Below, piece after piece: positions 22,282-60,000 of a stretch of DNA of 60,000 bases. The translations under genes were made by a program, and so were the position numbers. The stretch spans positions 30,010,001 to 30,070,000 of the forward strand of contig OZ249436.1 in NCBI GenBank assembly GCA_965235115.1, written 5' to 3'. Each line of letters starts with the position of its first letter. Positions within the stretch are counted from its first letter, which is position 1. The DNA comes from Laetmonice hystrix. Taxonomy: Eukaryota. Under the pieces are notes generated by a model. It did not search any database. It was not told the origin of the DNA and was given only the letters and a program-made list of their open reading frames with translations.

Positions 22282-22978
22282 AATAGGGCGCCGAAGTCTC
22301 GCGGCACCGTTATGGATTTTCTGGATAGGAGGTACAAATGGAGCGTCAATGTTGACACCCAAATGTTACGTCACAAATTTCCCATTGGTTTAACATAGGA
22401 GAAGAGACATCGTTCCAAAGATCGGCCTAGTCTTGAAGAGTTTTGTGTTCTTATGTATCAAAATTATCTATTCAAGCACACAACAGGTTGATACAAGCGT
22501 GAGCGATAATAGGGGGTTTAAGTCTCGTGACCTGGATATGCAAATGACGTTAAATAGCCTCAAACCAGCTCACGATAGCGCCGAAAGTGCGCCAAGCGAT
22601 TGTGACGTCAAAAATTTCCCCATAGGATTAACATTGACAGGGCCGACAGGTTCACAAAAACCAGCCTGTATATTCACAATCTAACTTTCTAAACTATAAA
22701 ACAAACTTTATCCTAGAGTAAACATCCCGGTAATCATGTATTGTAACGCTCAACATTAACAGCGACTTGACTGCAGAATGAAACTATTTCAAAGTTGACT
22801 GTCACTGTTCCCTATGGCCATCCCAATGTTAAACCAGCGAGGCTATCTGCTCCTTGTCCCGCTAACGCGAAATCTCTTGAATTCTCGTGACATACTTAAA
22901 CGCCCTATGAAGTGTCACCAAACCCGACTTTTATCGCGTTGTAACGCAACATCTCGTGACCTACTTCGGCGCCCTATT
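22282..22978. mobile_element. ATAGGG-family MITE, complete copy
   Basis: TIR AATAGGGCGCCGAAGT / ACTTCGGCGCCCTATT. Confidence 0.8.
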
Positions 22979-23160
22979 AAACAGAATTAATGAGTCCGGG
23001 CTCGGGTGCCATATCAGTCATTTATCGTCCGCCGGTTTAGGTTTCGCCGATGATGTCAGCCTTCTCTCCCCGTCTATACAAGCTCTTCAGGAACTACTAC
23101 GTATTTGCGAAGGATATGCCAACGAGTACAATGTTACCTTCAATGCAAAAAAGACTAAGA
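22979..23160 (+). pseudogene. Non-LTR (RTEX-like) reverse transcriptase fragment
   Basis: NRINESGLGCHISHLSSAGLGFADDVSLLSPSIQALQELLRICEGYANEYNVTFNAKKTK, containing the (Y/F)ADD catalytic motif. Confidence 0.85.
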
Positions 23161-23653
23161 CGTAATATGCAGGGGGACTGCCCCCATTGCCCTGCCCCCC
23201 CCCCTCCGTGGATGCCCACGCGCTAACTACTCATGGGGTATGATGGGACAGTTACCCATTGTGGCCCATAAGCCACTGTCCCATTATGCCCCACCCTTAA
23301 CGTCACAAAGATGTCCTCTTCCCGCCAGAGTAGATGATGCATCACGAGCTACGTAATGAATGTTTACTCTATAATGCCGACACTAACTGTTGGTGTGAGA
23401 ATAGTCAGTCATTCTTAGTTCTAGAGACTCAGGGGGTGTTAAGTATTTACCTGGCGGAAGTTTGGGTGCCAAGAATTCCAGGTCTGTAGATGATTACAGA
23501 TAAATGTGGGTCTGACGTTCGGATCCGTCAACACCAATATGTCTTCCATGAAGGCTGTGACAACTATAGGGAATCCCAGCCCCATCTGATGGAAAGTGTA
23601 GGAGCTAGAGCCATATATCCCTTCATGCCCCGAGTCCCGCCATGCCCCGCTTT

Positions 23654-24418
23654 CCCCTATATGTGTATATCTATGTATGTCATTACTGTAAACCTTATTA
23701 TCTCTGTATGTTAGTATAGTTCCCGTTTATATTCCCTTAAGGATGGGCGGCTTGGATGTTATGTATATATTTAATCATGTAGTTGCTGGAGTATTGGGTT
23801 CCCTTAAGTCGGATGCGGGTACGGGCTGGATCCGGGGATGCTCGGGCCGTCACCTCCCAAGTTGTATAACGGTTGTATCGATACCGTTGTCATGGTGAGT
23901 TGAGACCGGCACGTACCCAGCATCCTCCGTCCGTGTTGGCCTCCATGGCGGACCCCCAGCTGGGCGGGCGGTGTCACTATAGGAGCCGCGGGATCCGGAC
24001 ACTGACCGACCGGTGAAACGATGTCATCTTGTGGGTCCGTGTCGGTGACCGCAGCCACCGGGTCCACTGCTGGCAGAGCGGAGGGGGTGGAGTTCTGGGC
24101 CGGAACGCTGACACGGACGGCGTTTCGTATATATAGGGGCACCGAATATTCACTATTTCACTTATTGACGACTTCACCTATTGACTTAGTCACTTAGTAA
24201 TCAGCCGGTTTCTCAGTATTGTCAGTTAGCATGAGGTTCAGCCTCTAGGCTAGTAGAGTATCCCGCGATACTCTATATCATGTATCATGTCGTCTGAAAA
24301 TACAATTATCATCACCGCCAGCCATCGTTGACTTATCTTCACTGGGGTACATGGTACGGTAAGTCCCCCGTCTCCCTCCTACCTACGACCGCCGCCTCTC
24401 CAGGGTGGGTCCACAACA
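23654..24418 (+). repeat. 5' LTR (first ~50 bp missing)
   Basis: Matches ~29451-30232 with about a dozen substitutions and three small indels (counted by eye); ends ...CCACAACA. Confidence 0.92.
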
Positions 24419-24422
24419 TATT

Positions 24423-24440
24423 TGGTGACCGCGATGGGAC
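24423..24440 (+). promoter_or_regulatory. Primer binding site, tRNA-Arg-like
   Basis: TGGTGACCGCGATGGGAC 4 bp after the LTR; complementary to a 3' end GTCCCATCGCGGTCACCA resembling tRNA-Arg acceptor/T stems. The tRNA identity is inference. Confidence 0.7.
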
Positions 24441-24891
24441 AGTCTTTTTGACGGCACTGCGTGGCGCTGCAGTGTGGCTATAGGGCCTACACACTCCACG
24501 TGGTGCTGGATCTCATGACTGTCCAGTACACGGACTCCCAACCATGAGAGGCACGTTGGTCGTTTCTGTGACGGACTACAGACGTTTGCAACGGAGGGTA
24601 GGAAGCAGTAGACGCACGGTCATGACGCTGGCTATAACCATTGAGGGGACGGACTACATTGGCTACACCCGCGCAGACAACGCTAGTTCTGGTAGCAAAG
24701 GATCAATCAGGTGTGCAGGTGATCAACCCGGTTATGTTCAGGCCTGAGGAACAATAAGGTAGAGTGCGCTAGTTGTTTATGTAAGACGAGGATCAGTCGA
24801 AATAATTTGGAAGGTGCGACGGAGTTAGGATGGCGAAAGGGTTGGCCCAGGTTCAGGAGAGGCGGTTTGCCGAAACCAAATTGGAAAGGCA

Positions 24892-26338
24892 TGCGAGCAG
24901 GACCCCCGCGACACGATCATCTGCGGCCTGGATGGCCTACCGAGGGAGGAGGTGAGGATGGCACAGCAGGGCATGCCGGCGTATCAGGAGGCGGACGTGG
25001 AGGGTTCGGATTTCGAACGCCACGATGGTCTGCTTTGGTACACGCGAACCTCCGAGGGATCACCTTACCCCAAGTTGGTCCTCCCACGACGATGGAGGTC
25101 AAAGGTCATACAGCGGGCACACCAGGAGGTAGGTCACCAGGGCCGCCACAAAACCATGCATCGGTTGCGGGAGTGCTATTTCTGGAGGGGTCAGCAGATG
25201 GACGTGCGGGATGCCTTACGTCGTTGTCCGGCTTGCCAGGTCAACTCGGGCCAGGTGGAGCGCCCTATGCCAACCGGGATGCCAACTGCTCAATTCCCCG
25301 GGCAAATCGTGGGCCTCGATATGGTAGGCCCCCTGGCGTGCTCCCTGGAAAACAACCGCTACCTGGTCACGATCATTGACCATGCTACAGGATGGGCTGA
25401 GGCATACCCAGTGCCTAACAAGTCGGCCGACTGTGTACTACGGTGCCTGCAGCGTGACTACGTCCCCCGTCACGGGACGCCATTGATCGTGGTCCATGAC
25501 AACGGCCGTGAGTTTGACAACAGGACACTACGGGAGTGGTTTGACGCGCTAAGGATTGAGGTGAGGAAAACAACACCCTACCACCCTCAAACGAACGGAA
25601 AGGTGGAGCGTTTCCACCGGACGCTGAAGGACATGCTCCGGAAGTTGGTGAACAACAACAGCGCCAGGTGGGAAACGGAGCTCGCGCAGGCACTGCTGGC
25701 CCACCGCCAGGCAGTGTCGGAGACAACGGGCTACTCCCCCTATTTCCTGACCTACAGGCGACACGCGCGATAGCCGGCAGTGCAGGGCGTGGGCGACAAC
25801 AATGTTGCGGAGGCGCGCTGTGCTACATGGAAGGACTGGCGGAGGCCCTCCACCAGGCGGCGCTGAGGACGCAGCAGTCGAAGGAGAGGTACCAGCAGCA
25901 CGCAACCCAGCGGGCTAATGCGCCCCAACTTAGCATCGGTGACTACGTCATCCCGCGGGCACACGAACGGGCACCGCTGGATGCTAGGTGGGACACCCCC
26001 CAGGAGGTCACGCGCATTAGGGGAGCTGTGGTGTGGTGCCGGCCAAAGGACGGAGGACCGGTGCGGTCCTACAACCGGCAGCACTTACGACGGGTTGAGC
26101 GGGAGCTACCGTGGGATACCATTCAACCACGGGTCAGTAGGGCATCGAGGGCGCCAGTACGACACGGAGCGCCGAGGTGGCTCACACAGCCGCCTGCCCA
26201 AGTGAGCCGACCGGCTCCTCTGACCGCCCAGTCAAACCGGATGCCCCGCATTCCCCCCGCCCCAGCAACCACTCAGTTGGTTTCGGCTGACGACAGCCAG
26301 ATGGACACGGCTGACCCGGAGGTCGGCCGTGGTATTAA
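24892..26338 (+). pseudogene. Gypsy integrase (HHCC, DDE, GPY/F-like tail); one nonsense codon, one frameshift; C-terminus resumes at 27646
   Basis: AHQEVGHQG..CPACQ; VGLDMVGPL; VHDNGREF; TTPYHPQTNGKVERFHRTLK; TGYSPYFL; TAG at 25771; then LSIGDYV..LDARWDTPQEVTRI in another frame. Confidence 0.93.
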
Positions 26339-27641
26339 CCCTGTAAGACCCAACAATGTTTCGGCGTGGCCAAAAAAATCAACCACTGTTTTAAAGTAAC
26401 TAATTACAATGCCTCAGTGGGATAATTGTGGAATTTTTAGATTTTTTTATTTTTTACCCCTTTTTCAGATATGTTGCAAATGTGCTACATTGGGTTTCAG
26501 TTTAAAAACTCCAATCTAGGTTTGTCACATACAGATCTTTGTAAGATCTATTAGATCTTTACAAACAATAAAAAAACATGGGCTATACCCGGGGGAGCTA
26601 TGTTTTTAAAAAGTTTGTTTGCCGGGGGTCGGGGGGCCTCCCCCAGGAATTTTTTGCAATACAATTTTGCTGTTGATGTTGGAAATTTAGCTGAGGTAGC
26701 TGCCCGGGCTGCCTCACTGCATTTTACGGCCCTGTATACAACGGGTGCCACATGCCTCTACTGGGGGGGGGGGGGGGTCCGGGGACTTGCCCCCGGAAAT
26801 TTAGAAAATAATGGGGCAATTTGAGGCAATTTAAGCAATTTTAACCTTTGGAAATGGGGGTGGGCAAATCATACTTTGGCGCCCCTCCTGTAATATTGGG
26901 GAATGGGGTGGGGTGGGGGGGGGGCATGGCACCCCTTTATAGGGGTACAAAGGAAAATCTATGGAATATATCAACCGAATAGCAGAGCAGTCCAAATCCT
27001 TATGTAATGAATTTTTGTTTGTCCTTGTATGACAGAGGGACAGGGAGCCCCCAGATTTAGTTTGCCCCAGCCCCCTCACACTTCTTAATCCAGCACTGCT
27101 GCTGCTACTACTACTACTATTACTAGTACTACTACTACTATGACTACTGCTACTACTACCACCCCCAATCTGATAAGATGGAATGACTATAGTATAGTAT
27201 ACGCCCTAATACCAGATTAGCATAGGCTGACATTTGGACATCCATGACAATGAAGACCCAAAGTTGCATTTCTGCAACATCACAAAAACTTGTTGCATCC
27301 AACACTAACCGGCCACTTCAAAAAATATAATCAGATCTGCAGAATCTTGACTCTATAAAGAGTATGTATGAATTTTATTGGAGACTTCACTCACATGAGA
27401 TGCTTAGATAGTTCATGAAATTGTCGGACACTAACCTGCGCACGGATACAGCCATCTTGTTTTGGGTGTCATGGCTGGTTCAATGAATGTCTCACAGATG
27501 GCAGCACAATAGTGTGCATTTCTACAACGTTGGGTTTTCGTGGATATAATTCAGGGTTGATTTCACCACAGTGATATAATGCCCTTGGGCTGGACCCCCC
27601 GGAAAATTTGTTGCATATTTGCAACAGGGGGTCTTACAGGG
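26339..27641. mobile_element. piggyBac-like non-autonomous element inserted in the integrase tail
   Basis: TTAA on both sides (26335-38, 27642-45); TIR CCCTGTAAGACCC / GGGTCTTACAGGG; AT-rich interior with (CTA)n at ~27100-27160. Confidence 0.9.
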
Positions 27642-27702: not shown

Positions 27703-29342
27703 ATGCAGCTACCTCTCTACGATCTGGTGGCCTGCGCCATAGCCAATGGCGCATCGGTCAACCGCACGGCTATTCCTAACGGGGTAACCGTGGAAAAGCT
27801 GGCGGACGTCTGGCCCCTGTCTGCGAAGTGGAATGTGTTCATTACGATCGACGCACCAGAGGCTCCTCCAATGCGCAGGTGGGTGGCTGCGGCAAGGATG
27901 GCCATGGCGAAGCGGGCGTCGATGCTGCGGGCCGTGGACCGGATCGGCTTGGAGGCGCGACTGGCCGCATTGGACCTGGGTGGGGGTGCGCAACCCCGCA
28001 CTGGTCCGGGGCGGGCCAGGCAGCGTCGTGGGCTGGTCAACGTCATCGGTGACCTGGCATCGGCCCTGTTCGGGACAGCCACCCAAGCGGAGGTGGACCA
28101 ACTCCGGCGAATTCTACAGGCTACGGAGGCAGCGCAGCAGGTATTGTACCACAATCAGGAGGTGATGGCGAGTGTCATCAATGCCACAAGGCAGTACCTG
28201 CAGCAAAACCAGCAGGACATGCTTCTCCTGCAGAACCAGACGGACCAGCTAGAAGCGACGTTAGTGGGTTTGACGGGCAGAGTTCGAGCACTTGCAGGCC
28301 GAGTGAACACTCTGTACCTAACACGCGACTTGAATCGGTGGGTCGACCAGCTGGAAGCAATATCGTCCGGCTACACTCGACAGTATGACCACTTCAGGGT
28401 GGCGCGGCTGCACCTACAAGGGGGCCGGCTGTCAGAGTACATCGTACCCCGGGCACACCTGCGTGGGATCGTCCGTGCGTTACAGCGTCACGCGCACGTA
28501 ATGCACCTGGACTGGTACTACGCGTTCACACCAGTGAAGGTGTTGTGGGACCGGGAAGATCGCCTGGTGGCGGCCGCAGAAATCTGGGCCGGCCAGGCAG
28601 AGGAATTTCAACTGTGGCGATTGACGGCGTACCCAGTGGCTATGGTGGGAGCATTGATCACGCTCCAGGTGCGCCCCCTGGTGGCCGTCAATGCGAGGCG
28701 AACGGAGGCGTTCGAGGCGCGCTCCTGTCGAGGAGGCGCTACCTGTCTGTGCGACAGGCGTGTGAGGACCAGCCGGTCCTGCGAACTGGACCTAGTGAGT
28801 GGGGTTACTACTCTTCCGCATCACTGGGAGTTTGGTGGCTTCATAAGGGCAGGTGACTGCTCTCCGCCAGTAACCTCACCAAAGTGACAGTTAATTGTAT
28901 GGGGACGATCCCCGAGAAACTTTGGGTAGACAGCGTTGAGATGTGGCAGCTAGCGGAAGGATGCCAGCTGGAATGGGGAGGATCACGCACCTCCACGGTA
29001 GTATCACGCTACTCCAGGCTGGCCTACCACTACAACATCTTTGTGGCACCGAACGTGACATTAGTGCTCCCCGAGCACATCGTTGAACAATTGCCCGAAC
29101 GCATTAGGCTGAGTGGTGGGGTCAGGATCCCAGCGGCGGACCTGACCCTCAGACCGCTACCGTCCCGTGGCGTCCTGGGGCCCCCTCAGCATTGGCACGT
29201 GGGCCTGGTCGTGGGCGTGGTCCTGTTGGGCGCGCTGGCCGGGCTAGGGTGGCGCTGCCGCCGACACCTACGTGGCCGCGCGGAGAAGAAGGACGTGGAC
29301 GAGCCGATGTTATTACACGCGATGGCTTCTACCATAGAATAG
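27703..29342 (+). pseudogene. env: Envelope / class I fusion glycoprotein, baculovirus-F / errantivirus Env-like; frameshift near 28.8 kb
   Basis: N-terminal hydrophobic leader; furin site RQRR followed by fusion peptide GLVNVIGDLASALFGTATQAEV; heptad-rich helix; Cys-rich region; sequons NRT, NAT, NQT, NVT; C-terminal TM VGLVVGVVLLGALAGLGW followed by basic RCRR; located between integrase and PPT. Confidence 0.88.
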
Positions 29343-29385: not shown

Positions 29386-29401
29386 TTAAGGGGGGGAGGT
29401 A
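29386..29401 (+). promoter_or_regulatory. Polypurine tract
   Basis: TTAAGGGGGGGAGGTA immediately before the TG of the 3' LTR. Confidence 0.85.
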
Positions 29402-30232
29402 TGTTGCGGCTAGGCTTCGCTGCCGCTGGACATTTAATATAATTGGCCTCCCCCGTATATGTGTATATCTATATGTCATTACTGTAAACCTTATTATCTC
29501 TGTATGTTAGTATAGCTGAATCCTTGTTCCCGTTTATATTCCCTTAAGGATGGGCGGCTTGGATGTTATGTATATATTTAATCATGTAGTTGCTGGAGTA
29601 TTGGGTTCCCTTAAGTCGGATGCGGGTAAGGGCTGGATCCGGGGATGCTCAGGCCGTCACCTCCCAAGTTGTATAACGGTTGTATCGATACCGTTGTCAT
29701 GGTGAGTTGAGACCGGCACGTACCCAGCATCCTCCGTCCGTGTTGGCCTCCATGGCGGACCCCCAGCTGGGCGGCCGGTGTCACTATAGGAGCCGCGGGA
29801 TCCGGACACTGACCGACCGGTGACACGATGTCATCTTGTGGGCCCGTGTCGGTGACCGCAGCCACCGGGTCCACTGCTGGCAGAGCGGAGGGGGTGGAGT
29901 TCCGGGCCGGAACGCTGACACGGACGGCGTTTCGTATATATAGGGGCACCAAATATTCACTATTTCACTTATTGACGACTTCACCTATTGACTTAGTCAC
30001 TTAGTAATCAGCCGGTTTCTCAGTATTGTCAGTTAGCATGAGGTTCAGCCTCTAGGCTAGTAGAGTATCCCGTGATACAGTGTACTCTATATCATGTATC
30101 ATGTCGTCTGAAAATACAATTATCATCACCGCCAACCGTCGTTGACTTATCTTCACTGGGGTACATGGTACGGTATGCCCCCCGTCTCCCTCCTACCTAC
30201 GACCGCCGCCTCTCCAGGGTGGGTCCACAACA
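29402..30232 (+). repeat. 3' LTR (complete, 831 bp)
   Basis: TGTTGCGG...CCACAACA inverted termini; preceded by PPT; matches the 5' LTR. Confidence 0.93.
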
Positions 30233-53938: not shown

Positions 53939-55767
53939 CAGTCATGGAGTGAGGGGGCGCTGGAAGATTCGGGGTGTCCGGCCCTGGATCTAAACCGCTT
54001 GGCTTGTTTTCAACAAATATTCGAAATAGGACACCTTCTTGTCGCCTAGATTTATCTGTATAGGTCTACTCGCCACTCCTTCATATATTTAATATATATG
54101 TAAACGGAAGTATAAGCAGGAAAATGAACAGAAAGTATTGAAGCGAAGATAAGATATAAAAAAAATCATCGTTCTCTTGCAAATAATGACCAGAAAATCG
54201 AAAGAAACCAGGTTTTTTTTCAATTCAATGGAAAGTATTCGATTTTGCCCGCAAGGAAATACACTTAAAATGAAGAAATAGTGCCAGTATATTCTATAGT
54301 TAACGACTACAAGTATCATATAAATGGGTTTCAAGGATGTCGAATTTAGATTTATATTGTTTCATTTTAAAGTGAATGCAACCCTTTTAAAAATTCGCAT
54401 TAGCGTGTTTTACCTATAATTCCTTTTAATTCAAATATCGATCCTTTTTCGGTATTTACCTTAACTACACCTCTGCCCCTGACAAAAACATTGAGTAATT
54501 ATTTTCAGGGGGCTGAGGGTACTTTTCCACAAAATCCACAGGGAAACACCAATTTTCAGAATGAAATGCCAGTGCATGGTGAAGAGAAATATAATTTATT
54601 TTCGTCTGATCGGGCAACGCTTCATGCCTCGTATAGTGCATTATTGATATTATTAGAATACGTCCCGAATACAGTAGTCCATGCATTACTGTATTGTATG
54701 CAGATGATCCAGGTGTATGGCCAGGTGATCTACGTGCATTTCTATATTACATGTTTTGCAAAACTTGGCAGGTGAACGTCCGTCTGAAAGAAAAGGTATA
54801 GAACATATTAAGAACATGGGGGTGTTTCATAAACTGGTGTCGTTAGTCGTCATTGTCGGACGTTGACGACACTGGCTGGACGATCTTCGCCCGACCTGTC
54901 GTTCATTTCGTTTCATAAAAATTATCGTCCACAACAAATGTAGTTAGTAAGTAAATCGACGATTTTGTCGTCCGACACTTGTAAACGTCGTAGGTGCTGT
55001 CGTCAAAAATATAGTTGTAGTGTCGCACGATTCCACGACATGTAACGTAACGATGGTATTGAGGAAGTCACGTGACCTCGAACATGGGTCTGAATATAGG
55101 GCTATAACTCAACAAAGGTGCAAGATAGAGTCAAACTTACTATAGAATATGTATAGGAAGTCATATATGCTCTTTCATTATACACCATTATTTTTTAGGT
55201 CACATGACCTATGACGTCATCAGGAGATGATCTATATATTCAGAGGTCTATAACTTGTAAATGGTTGAACTTAGGGTCATAGTTACTACTGAACACTAAT
55301 AGGAAGTCATATATGCTCTTCTGTTTGGCACCATTATTTTTTAGGTCACGTGACCTATGACATCATCAGGAGAGTATCTATATATTCACAGGGCTATAAC
55401 TCATGGTTGAACGTAGAGCCACAGTTACTATTAAATGCTAATAGGAAGTCGCATATGCTCTTTCCTTTGACACCATTTTTTAGGTCACATGACCTATGAC
55501 CTTATAAGGATATGATCTTTCTTTTCTTATGGGTGTAACTTGTAAATGGTTGAAGATAAAACCATAGTTCCTAGTAAACACTGGTAGAAAGTCATAAGGA
55601 GGTAATCTATATTTTCTCAAGGCTATAACTTGTAAATGGTCTAACTTGGACCCATAGTTACTATTCAACACCAATAGACATATTTTTAGGTCACGTGACC
55701 TATGACGTATGCCTGCTATAACACAATGATATGACATAATACATAGGCCTAAGTTATCACCGTGTAT

Positions 55768-55835
55768 GGTTGGCTCCGTGTTAGAGTGTAGGACCTTCAT
55801 GGCAGACGTCTGGGGGTCGAATCCCAGCCGATACA
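55768..55835 (+). pseudogene. tRNA-derived relic inside the TIR element (mirror copy ~59262-59330 on the - strand)
   Basis: A-box-like TGGCTCCGTGTTAG and B-box-like GG(G/T)TCGAATCC at tRNA spacing; no convincing cloverleaf. Confidence 0.45.
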
Positions 55836-56430
55836 AATCTTTTTATTTTTTATTTAGTTCATCATTGTTGATTAGTACTATAGTCATTATTTTACAGCAA
55901 GACAAGAATTATATGTGTGCAGGGGTGGCGTAGTGACACAATTTAGGAGGCCAGAGTTTATTTAATTTTTTTCCTAATATGCGACATTGAAATAATTATG
56001 TTAAAATTTTCAATAAATCTTACATGCCAAACAGCTGGAAACACTACAGGTATTTATCAGATATATTAAAGTTATAAATTCATTACATACCTTTCCTTTT
56101 ACATTAAACAATATATATGTATTCGTTGAATGGCAGTTAACCCTCCACATCTGGGGTCCTGTGCAGTGAGTGGTGCATTACCCTCCTCTTTCATATGCAC
56201 CACAAAGCTCCACTGCAGATTGCCGATCAATTCTATATACCGTCTTAGAAACTGATGGACCGGGAAGTGGCCGATTGGGTCCAGACGCGGGTGGTATATT
56301 TTCGGCGCCTTATCTCTTCTCACTTCTAACACGTGCCCTCCTTCCGCCATGTTGAAGTTTGAAGTTTGAACCCACATATTGGGTTTCAAAAAGAGGCCCT
56401 GCGCCTCTTTTTAAAATCCTACGACACCCC

Positions 56431-58049
56431 TGTTACAACCGCTAATGTAATAACGCCCACTATTGTAATAACTGGGGTGCTAGGGGGGTACCAGGGAAGT
56501 ACCACCAGAGTACCGGACAGGACCGGGGGAGCATTTTTGGGGTACCCTCTGAGTACCCTCTGGGTACCCAGAGGGTACCAACCGGGGGGGTACCAGGGAA
56601 ATACTACTGGAGTACCGGACAGGACCAGGTGAGCATTTTGGGGGTACCCCCTGAGTACCATCTGGGTACCCCCTGGGTACCCTGGGTACCCTCAGGTACC
56701 GATCTGGTCAGTAGCTCTTGAACAAAGTTTTATTACAATAGCGGTTACGAATTCTGGCGAACGCAACCGCTATTGTAATAACTGGGGTGCTAGGGGGGTA
56801 CCAGGGAAGTACCACCAGAGTACCGGACAGGACCAGGTGAGCATTTTGGGGGTACCCCCTGAGTACCATCTGGGTACCCCCTGGGTACCCTCAGGTACCG
56901 ATCTGGTCGGTAGCCCTTGAACAAAGTTTTATTACAATAGCGGTTGCGAATTCTGGCGAACGCAACCGCTATTGTAATAACTGGGGTGCTAGGGGGGTAC
57001 CAGGGAAGTACCACCAGAGTACCGGACAGGACCAGGTGAGCATTTTGGGGGTACCCCCTGAGTACCATCTGGGTACCCCCTGGGTACCCTCAGGTACCGA
57101 TCTGGTCGGTAGCCCTTGAACAAATTTTATTACAATAGCGGTTGCGAATTCTGGCGAACGCAACCGCTATTGTAATAACTGGGGTGCTAGGGGGGTACCA
57201 GGGAAGTGCCACCAGAGTACCGGACAGGACCAGGTGAGCATTTTGGGGGTACCCCCTGAGTACCATCTGGGTACCCCCTGGGTACCCTCAGGTACCGATC
57301 TGGTCGGTAGCCCTTGAACAAAGTTTTATTACAATAGCGGTTGCGAATTCTGGCGAACGCAACCGCTATTGTAATAACTGGGGTGCTAGGGGGGTACCAG
57401 GGAAGTACCACCAGAGTACCGGACAGGACCAGGTGAGCATTTTGGGGGTACCCCCTGAGTACCATCTGGGTACCCCCTGGGTACCCTCAGGTACCGATCT
57501 GGTCGGTAGCCCTTGAACAAAGTTTTATTACAATAGCGGTTGCGAATTCTGGCGAACGCAACCGCTATTGTAATAACTGGGGTGCTAGGGGGGTACCAGG
57601 GAAGTACCACCAGAGTACCGGACAGGACCAGGTGAGCATTTTGGGGGTACCCCCTGAGTACCATCTGGGTACCCCCTGGGTACCCTCAGGTACCGATCTG
57701 GTCGGTAGCCCTTGAACAAATTTTATTACAATAGCGGTTGCGAATTCTGGCGAACGCAACCGCTATTGTAATAACTGGGGTGCTAGGGGGGTACCAGGGA
57801 AGTACCACATGGTACTCAGGGGGTACCCCCAAAATGCTCACCTGGTCCTGTCCGGTACTCCAGTAGTATTTCCCTGGTACCCCCCGGTTGGTACCCTCTG
57901 GGTACCCAGGGGGTACCCAGAGGGTACTCAGAGGGTACCCCAAAAATGCTGCCCTGGTCCTGTCCGGTACTCTGGTGGTACTTCCCTGGTACCCCCCTAT
58001 CACCCCAGTTATTACAATAGTGGGCGTTATTACATTAGCGGTTGTAACA
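56431..58049. mobile_element. TGT...ACA foldback element (Ginger-like termini) with ~230-bp TIRs, 6-bp TSD and internal ~199-bp tandem array
   Basis: TGTTACAACCGCTAATGTAATAACGCCCACTATTGTAATAACTGGGGTG and exact inverse; CACCCC at 56425-30 and 58050-55; absent from the mirror copy at ~58650; about 6 GGTACC-rich units. Confidence 0.9.
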
Positions 58050-58442
58050 CACCCCCCCTGGGGTGTCGCCGGTTACCACAGTAATACTGTCGCACGATTC
58101 CTGTAGTTAGTCGTACGATTTCTTTATGAAACAGAAAGTAACTACAGTAAACCCATCGGTAGTTGTTTCTATCGTGCGACACTACAGTAATATTATGAAA
58201 CACGACAGCATCGTGCGACACTGTAGTTAGTCGTGCTACTAACGACACCGGTTTATGAAACACCCCCCATATCTTTACTGAACCAAAGATATACGTATAA
58301 CTTACACCACGATATTTTGAAGTAGTATGCCACATTAACTGGACTGTCACACTAAAACCAGTTTAAAGATAATATAATACATAGACCTGAATATTATTCA
58401 GGTCTATGTAGGCCTGTAATAGTGACAGGAGAAAAGGTCCAT

Positions 58443-60000
58443 GGGGGTGTTTCATAAACCGGTGTCGTTAGTCGCACGACTAACTACAGTGTCGCACGAT
58501 GCTGTCGTGTTTCATAATATTACTGTAGTGTCGCACGATAGAAAAAACTACCGATGGGTTTACTGTAGTTACTTTCTGTTTCATAAAGAAATCGTACGAC
58601 TAACTACGGGAATCGTGCGAAAGTATTACTGTGGTAACCGGCAACACCCCGGGGGGGGGGGGGGTGTCGTAGGATTTTAAAAAGAGGCGCAGGGCCTCTT
58701 TTTGAAACCCAATATGTGGGTTCAAACTTCAAACTTCAACATGGCGGAAGGAGGTCACGTGGTAGAAGTGAGAAGAGATAAGGCGCCGAAAATATACCAC
58801 CCGCGTCTGGACCCAATCGGCCACTTCCCGGTCCATCAGTTTCTAAGACGGTATATAGAATTGATCGGCAATCTGCAGTGGAGCTTTGTGGTGCATATGA
58901 AAGAGGAGGGTAATGCACCACTCACTGCACAGGACCCCAGATGTGGAGGGTTAACTGCCATTCAACGAATACGTATACATGTATATTATTTAATGTGAAA
59001 GGAAAGGTATGTAATGAATTTATAACTTTAATATATCTGATAAATACCTGTAGTGTTTCCAGCTGTTTGGCATGTAAGATTTATTGAAAATTTTAACATA
59101 ATTATTTCAATGTCGGATATCAGGAAAAAAATTAAATAAACTCTGGCCTCCTAAACTGTGTCACTACGCCACCCCTGCACACATATAATTCTTGTCTTGC
59201 TGTAAAATAATGACTATAGTACTAATCAACAATGATGAACTAAATAAAAAATAAAAAGATTTGTATCGGCTGGGATTCGAACCCGAGACATCTGCCATGA
59301 AGGTCCTACACTCTAACAGGGAGCCAACCATACACGGTGATAACTTAGGCCTATGTATTATGTCATATCATTGTGTTATAGCAGGCATACGTCATAGGTC
59401 ACGTGACCTAAAAATATGTCTATTGGTGTTGAATAGGAACTATGGGTCCAAGTTCGACCATTTACAAGTTATAGCCTTGAGAAAATATAGATTACCTCCT
59501 TATGACTTTCTACCAGTGTTTACTAGGAACTATGGTTTTATCTTCAACCATTTACAAGTTACACCCATAAGAAAAGAAAGATCATATCCTTATAAGGTCA
59601 TAGGTCATGTGACCTAAAAAATGGTGTCAAAGGAAAGAGCATATGCGACTTCCTATTAGCATTTAATAGTAACTGTGGCTCTACGTTCAACCAGTCACAA
59701 GTTATAGCCCTGTGAATATATAGATAATCTCCTGATGATGTCATAGGTCACGTGACCTAAAAAATAATGGTGCCAAACAGAAGAGCATATGACTTCCTAT
59801 TAGTGTTCAGTAGTAACTATGACCCTAAGTTCAACCATTTACAAGTTATAGACCTCTGAATATATAGATCATCTCCTGATGACGTCATAGGTCATGTGAC
59901 CTAAAAAATAATGGTGTATAATGAAAGAGCATATATGACTTCCTATACATAATCTATAGTAAGTTTGACTCTATCTTGCACCTTTGTTGAGTTATAGCCC
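58443..60000. mobile_element. Composite TIR element, copy B, inverted relative to copy A; runs off the window
   Basis: 58441-~58665 mirrors 58270-58050 and ~58665-60000 mirrors 56430-~55098 at very high identity (see the near-identical paired ORF translations 55480/59261 and 56099/58702). Confidence 0.9.

Follow-up and report, generated by a model that had tools for sequence, protein, structure and literature searches.

An F-type envelope gene in a dead member of a recently expanded annelid Ty3/gypsy family

The env gene found at positions 27703-29342 of the window (the whole 60,000-nt stretch of DNA analyzed here) very probably belongs to a dead copy of a recently expanded annelid Ty3/gypsy family, of the "ancient errantivirus" kind with an F-type ENV. 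This copy is an internally deleted member of a gag-pol-env family and cannot replicate; the suggestion in a preliminary description that the element was once potentially infectious is therefore moot for the window copy, and is plausible for the family by analogy with known systems. As for the copy in the window, it is a fossil of little weight, and the family adds one young annelid case to a class that was mapped in 2026, which makes it material rather than a surprise. F-type env lineages in this genome number at least eight, and in some of them the LTR pairs are 99.5-100% alike; such a genome is well suited to asking whether env-carrying gypsy elements of non-insect hosts enter the germline by infection.

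Structure of the window copy

The preliminary description recognized an F-type env architecture (leader, RQRR, helix, Cys cluster, sequons, and transmembrane segment, in front of the polypurine tract), and the reading frames bear this out (Table 1). The start codon opens a 394-codon frame that contains the leader, the RQRR site, the fusion peptide, a long helix rich in Gln and Ala, and Cys 342, 350, and 360. The C-terminal part, with further Cys, the NLT and NVT sequons, the transmembrane helix, a basic cytoplasmic tail, and a TAG stop codon at 29340-29342, lies in a different frame; env has six Cys and five sequons in total. The leader was assessed by hydropathy, and residues 3-12 form a helix in the structure model of a sibling Env. 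At the cleavage junction, RQRR is followed directly by GLVNVIGDLASALFG. A pattern combining the furin site and the fusion peptide had a single match across all six window frames and none in 100 shuffles of the window, a lenient control given that the pattern was composed after the motif had been seen.

In all seven siblings compared, env is 98.1-98.4% identical to the window gene, and the single gap consists of 25 nt missing from the window copy near 28812. The TGA at 28854 falls in the downstream frame, and a sense codon occupies that site in all eight siblings. The sibling alignment agrees with the earlier estimate that env is about one frameshift and one TGA away from repair. The window copy yields no working Env or Pol and is dead for several reasons.

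Table 1. Features of the Ty3/gypsy copy in the window (window positions, forward strand).
Feature	Position	Strand	Basis or remark
5' LTR, first ~56 nt missing	23658..24418	+	begins at position 57 of full-length sibling; ends ...AACA
Primer binding site (PBS)	24423..24439	+	complementary over 17 nt to the 3' end plus CCA of host tRNA-Arg(TCG)
gag start, truncated by internal deletion	24830..24896	+	ATG at 24830
3' part of pol: bridge and integrase (HHCC, rve)	24888..26338	+	Pfam Integrase_H2C2 E 4e-15, rve E 3e-13
piggyBac-like non-autonomous insert, 1,303 bp	26339..27641	.	TTAA on both sides, 13-bp terminal inverted repeats
env start codon and putative signal peptide	27703..27753	+	best 9-residue hydropathy 1.96, versus 2.81 in sibling
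Furin-type site RQRR and fusion peptide GLVNVIGDLASALFGTAT	28018..28083	+	RQRR at 28018-28029; GLVNVIGDLASALFGTAT at 28030-28083
HR1-like long helices 3' of fusion peptide	28084..28419	+	helices 128-144, 161-188, and 195-239 in sibling model
Beta-rich, Cys-containing ectodomain	28420..29189	+	broken: 25-nt deletion near 28812, TGA at 28854
Transmembrane helix	29199..29252	+	sole 19-residue windows with hydropathy >1.6 begin at aa 505-509; helix 506-532 in model
Polypurine tract	29388..29399	+	read directly; same tract 5' of 3' LTR in siblings
3' LTR, TGTT...AACA, 831 bp	29402..30232	+	sibling comparison

Upstream of env, a 2.7-kb deletion joins sibling position ~1302 to ~4003 and has removed the rest of gag, the protease, the reverse transcriptase (RT), and RNase H. 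The remaining integrase is interrupted at 25771 by a TAG and near 25819 by a 1-nt gap. The 1,303-bp insert between pol and env is absent from the siblings and has five further full-length copies in the genome, 97-99% alike; from its hallmarks, we take it to be piggyBac-like. These observations also bear on the idea that the window locus holds a domesticated host env gene, like Iris of Drosophila. Nothing but the env homology speaks for such a gene, whereas the gene seen here is broken twice, sits between LTRs that are 1.6% apart (12 mismatches in 763 aligned columns), and shares 98% identity with mobile siblings dispersed in the genome. The lesions refute domestication at this locus, and we regard its chance as practically negligible.

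Two other repeats were seen in the window. A non-LTR reverse transcriptase fragment lies directly upstream of the element (22911-23162; RVT_1, E 2.5e-5), and a long inverted duplication at 55099-60000 has arms of 723, 320, and 214 nt that are 98-100% identical, arranged around a 199-bp tandem array.

The family and its host

The family to which the window copy belongs is young and multi-copy. A search of the same genome with the 394-aa env piece returned at least 109 matches (105 of 541 candidates scored), and the first 368-370 residues were matched at 96-98% in 13 other places. Seven of these 13 have a stop-free 559-codon frame and one more has a 557-codon frame. At the DNA level, a search with a sibling found at least 19 long copies (20 scored of 242 candidates). 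Eight siblings were examined at full length, and gag, a 1,133-codon pol, and env are all open in two of them; seven of the eight were picked as best env matches, such that open env frames are over-counted in this set. The expectation that open-frame relatives exist was therefore correct. Most siblings are 8.06-8.11 kb long, and the two LTRs of a copy, compared at full length, are 98.2-99.9% identical (in one partly aligned pair, 100% over 632 nt), and a clear 4-bp target duplication was found in five of the eight.

According to Pfam, the sibling Gag contains a CCHC knuckle in addition to a retrotransposon gag domain, and the sibling Pol (P0002) contains protease (weak, E 0.1), RT, RNase H, and integrase domains. 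These domains stand in gypsy order and support the earlier identification of a Ty3/gypsy element, an assignment made here by Pfam domain order and in the published survey of such elements by GyDB HMM classification (PMC13524379). In all four copies inspected, pol overlaps gag in the -1 frame and the overlap contains a GGGAAAC heptamer, which suggests that Gag-Pol may be expressed by ribosomal -1 frameshifting. The PBS pattern for tRNA-Arg had 15 exact genomic matches and its reversed control had none; ARAGORN identified the three genes in the two loci scanned as tRNA-Arg(tcg). A tRNA-Trp primer, considered from the TGGTGACC start, was dropped given the exact match to tRNA-Arg. A search with the RT gave at least 120 proteins, nearly all of them without a name. 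Precomputed annotation assigns an extra PF01661 (Macro) domain to P0236 and P0247, related gypsy Pol proteins of ~1,440 aa that come from other sources.

The host is a lophotrochozoan and very likely a polychaete annelid. Its COX1 reads cleanly in the invertebrate mitochondrial code, and conserved residues are disrupted under the echinoderm, tunicate, vertebrate, and cnidarian codes; an echinoderm was rejected because table 9 breaks conserved lysines and methionines of COX1. All protein genes of the mitochondrial genome share one strand, and they are arranged as nad1-nad3-nad2-cox1-cox2-cox3-nad6-cob-atp6-nad5-nad4L-nad4 (all but cox1 named by eye), which we take to be the dominant annelid order. 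The Hox cluster contains Lox5-, Lox4-, Lox2-, Post1-, and Post2-type homeoboxes, as judged by type signatures. A single gene order is reported to dominate annelid mitogenomes (110 of 149 species; PMC10405356). The mitochondrial code and gene order, together with the Lox and Post genes, confirm that the host is not an insect. Separately, two tandem arrays of near-identical homeoboxes were noted at G000:C4:22.89-22.93 Mb and C4:18.78-18.82 Mb, with ~12 and ~13 copies at ~3.3 kb spacing.

Homology, fold, and selection of Env

The identification of Env as an F-type fusogen was examined with profiles and with structure, and both agree with it. Against Pfam Baculo_F (PF12259), the window env matched over aa 104-189 (E 0.001, 18.2 bits) and a natural 554-aa sibling env (P0001) scored 18.4 bits, both below the 24.1-bit gathering cut-off. 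Two relatives at 58-59% identity passed that cut-off (25.4 and 31.6 bits), and 31 of the 36 env relatives scanned matched Baculo_F at E <= 0.01. The sibling env matched 504 protein clusters at E <= 0.001. A 128-sequence profile matched two PDB entries named "fusion protein", 9w4d (E 7e-15) and 9w4c (E 1e-13), over two separate halves, namely, the N-terminal half and the Cys-rich half. From their motif, we take 9w4d and 9w4c to be baculoviral. In a separate search for homologous proteins, the sibling env and the profile each gave a single protein without a name, and ten top relatives that were looked up had no names either. Matches of the profile to spike proteins (E >= 4e-4) were ascribed to transmembrane and heptad bias, and a phmmer search of PDB with the single window env protein gave coiled-coil noise alone (best E 0.74). 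An Atlas search gave scores of 0.95-0.96 to Baculo_F and Gypsy clusters, with recognition below its threshold.

An AlphaFold2 monomer model of the 554-aa sibling env (mean pLDDT 83.9, pTM 0.73) is weak at the tail and at the fusion peptide, where pLDDT is <50. In Foldseek searches with this model, baculovirus F proteins rank first among viral models (E 1e-20, probability 1.0, TM ~0.48), and RSV F ranks first in PDB (E 2e-12, probability 1.0, TM ~0.35). The modest whole-chain TM-scores would be in keeping with the extensive change in shape from the pre-fusion to the post-fusion state. The structural matches share 10-15% identity with the sibling env, and fold and profile matches alike point to F proteins only.

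Conservation was examined in an alignment of the sibling env with 127 of the 150 relatives listed, with short ones omitted (128 rows). Among rows with a residue at the site, R106 is conserved in 126 of 127, R109 in 125 of 127, G116 in 123 of 126, F123 in 122 of 128, and G124 in 123 of 128. Six Cys are invariant or nearly so; overall, the furin arginines, the fusion-peptide residues G and FG, and the Cys are retained in 122-128 rows, and the joint furin and fusion-peptide motif in 110 of 128. In the F2-equivalent part, upstream of the furin site, no Cys is conserved: any Cys occurs there in 18 of 117 rows, with a maximum of 3 of 128 per column. Because of this, the disulfide between F1 and F2 is probably missing in the Env of the annelid family. 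In baculovirus and paramyxovirus F proteins, a disulfide as a rule joins F1 and F2.

Across families, env evolves under purifying selection of roughly the strength seen for pol. The dN/dS values of env are 0.19, 0.12, 0.15, and 0.11 in four family pairs, with dS near saturation in three of them and unsaturated only in the 0.11 pair, which comes from another family; the value for pol is 0.10. Synonymous differences exceed non-synonymous ones in 22 of 28 sibling env pairs, which are not independent. The env and pol trees of seven paired sequences are congruent at each of the three branches that both resolve, for trees built from ingroup sequences only and with one env-pol pairing assumed.

The first rank of baculovirus F proteins among the structural matches would be expected if one annelid gypsy lineage had recently and independently captured an exogenous viral F gene, either baculovirus-like or from Mononegavirales. 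However, the identity to baculovirus F is too low to favor this, the homologs span hundreds of protein clusters, at least seven other env lineages in the same genome lie beside gypsy gag or pol, and the env and pol histories agree. A recent capture is thus very improbable. Baculovirus as the donor of env has also been argued against for such elements in general (PMC13524379).

The more serious alternative is that env is real but unused for cell entry, with the family copying itself within germ cells and env being a passenger or serving another membrane role. Transmission has been established for Drosophila elements alone, according to the published survey (PMC13524379), and short env-carrying, pol-less LTR elements have also multiplied in this genome, which indicates that env can ride along. 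Against a passenger env stand the parity of selection on env and pol, the excess of synonymous differences among siblings, and the retention of the furin site, fusion peptide, and Cys in more than 120 of 128 relatives that are 20-30% identical. On balance, we consider a passenger env improbable, and a working fusogen in the family likely.

If the family works as a fusogen-bearing element, Gag and Gag-Pol would package RNA, and reverse transcription would be primed by tRNA-Arg. Env would enter the secretory route, become glycosylated, form a trimer, and be cut at RQRR. This cleavage would free the fusion peptide, and the long helices would refold to bring about membrane merger in the manner of class I F proteins. 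Enveloped particles may then pass from cell to cell, most likely from soma to germline as in Drosophila gypsy. Cleavage, trimer formation, and fusion, as well as the passage of particles, are proposed here by analogy with class I F proteins and Drosophila gypsy. We hold infection as the present route of spread to be less likely than a working fusogen. The strongest form of this reading, that the family is a currently infectious enveloped annelid element with an F-type fusogen that has no F1-F2 disulfide and with particles that fuse into germ cells and perhaps reach other worms via seawater, is possible but doubtful. If true, it would provide a natural non-insect system for asking whether "ancient errantiviruses" spread by infection, and the pol-less, env-carrying elements would be satellites that ride on the family.

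Several other env carriers were observed in this genome. At least seven further F-type env lineages (G000, L070-L088) are 26-59% identical to the env of the window family; they mostly adjoin gypsy gag and pol, with several LTR pairs 98-100% alike and differing PBS sequences. A pol-less LTR element of ~3.45 kb (L078, L081, L083, and L087) has 545-bp LTRs, a short gag remnant, and a 530-532-codon env frame, which includes the furin site and fusion peptide, has no start codon of its own, and seems out of frame at its 5' end. At least 21 full-length matches to this element (22 scored) are spread over several contigs and have target duplications. The majority lie in a tandem array of ~13-kb units at G000:C12:27.59-27.90 Mb, which ends in a 2,904-bp env-LTR tandem; at L078:640-2746 and L079:3600-5706, the unit also contains an integrase-like stretch on the opposite strand and a 399-codon open frame that has no match to genes of the window family. 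A second pol-less derivative of ~4 kb (L073:5333-9314 and L075) has an integrase tail, a 580-codon env frame, and near-identical 428-bp LTRs; in this derivative, env is retained in elements unable to copy themselves.

Comparison with known env-carrying elements

Env-carrying gypsy elements of annelids have already been described, and the present family is perhaps among those listed (PMC13524379). That survey of invertebrates (Chary and Hayashi, eLife 2026; PMC13524379) assembled 1,512 intact env-carrying Ty3/gypsy elements; its supplement 1 gives ENV_F 1,291 times and ENV_HSV 221 times, with the F type found across metazoans. The word "Annelida" occurs 148 times in the supplement, two per inspected row, which corresponds to ~74 annelid elements. 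Among 15 annelid rows, 14 are F-type and two have an Arg(UCG/UCU) PBS. The surveyed elements have conserved furin sites and fusion peptides and an env that co-diverges with pol, and none were found in echinoderms (PMC13524379). For gypsy elements of non-insect invertebrates, an F-type env, which had seemed unexpected, is the rule according to the survey, also in annelids (PMC13524379). Our literature searches turned up no functional test of an annelid env.

The survey distinguishes "insect" elements, with a pseudo-RNase H in the Pol bridge, from "ancient" ones, which have a mini domain of helices and three small strands instead (PMC13524379). Our bridge model (pLDDT 87) has RNase H at residues 14-131, three helices at 155-183, and three short strands at 191-194, 197-200, and 211-213, followed by the HHCC domain; only 93 aa separate the end motif of RNase H from the first zinc-finger His of the integrase. 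Neither the model nor the sequence of the bridge contains a second, pseudo-RNase H, and there is no five-strand fold there. The bridge of the annelid family is therefore modeled as the "ancient errantivirus" type, RNase H plus a mini domain. The earlier label "errantivirus-type" holds for the F-type env, which is errantivirus-like, but the bridge places the affinity of the family with the "ancient" group rather than with insect errantiviruses.

Like the F-type "ancient errantiviruses" as described (PMC13524379), the family is multi-copy in an annelid host and combines gag, pol, and env between LTRs with a Ty3/gypsy Pol and an Env that has the furin site and fusion peptide. The features that we matched to this group are the domain order of Pol, the presence of gag, pol, env, and PBS between the LTRs (in siblings), the F fold of Env, and the mini-domain bridge. 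The window copy differs in not being intact and would fail the inclusion rule of the survey, and an F2 without cysteine is not remarked on for "ancient errantiviruses" in the sections of the survey used here (PMC13524379).

Insect errantiviruses such as gypsy, ZAM, and Idefix of Drosophila share with the annelid family the gene order and the class of env. Unlike them, the annelid family has no duplicated pseudo-RNase H, its host is not an insect, and its PBS corresponds to Arg rather than Ser, Lys, or Leu. A CCHC knuckle is present in its Gag, a feature not known from the Gag of Drosophila gypsy. Infection has been shown for Drosophila elements only. Finally, Env resembles the class I fusogens, both baculovirus F (Ld130-type) and pneumo/paramyxovirus F, in predicted fold and profile match, and differs from these viral proteins in its low sequence identity to them and in an F2-equivalent part without conserved Cys.
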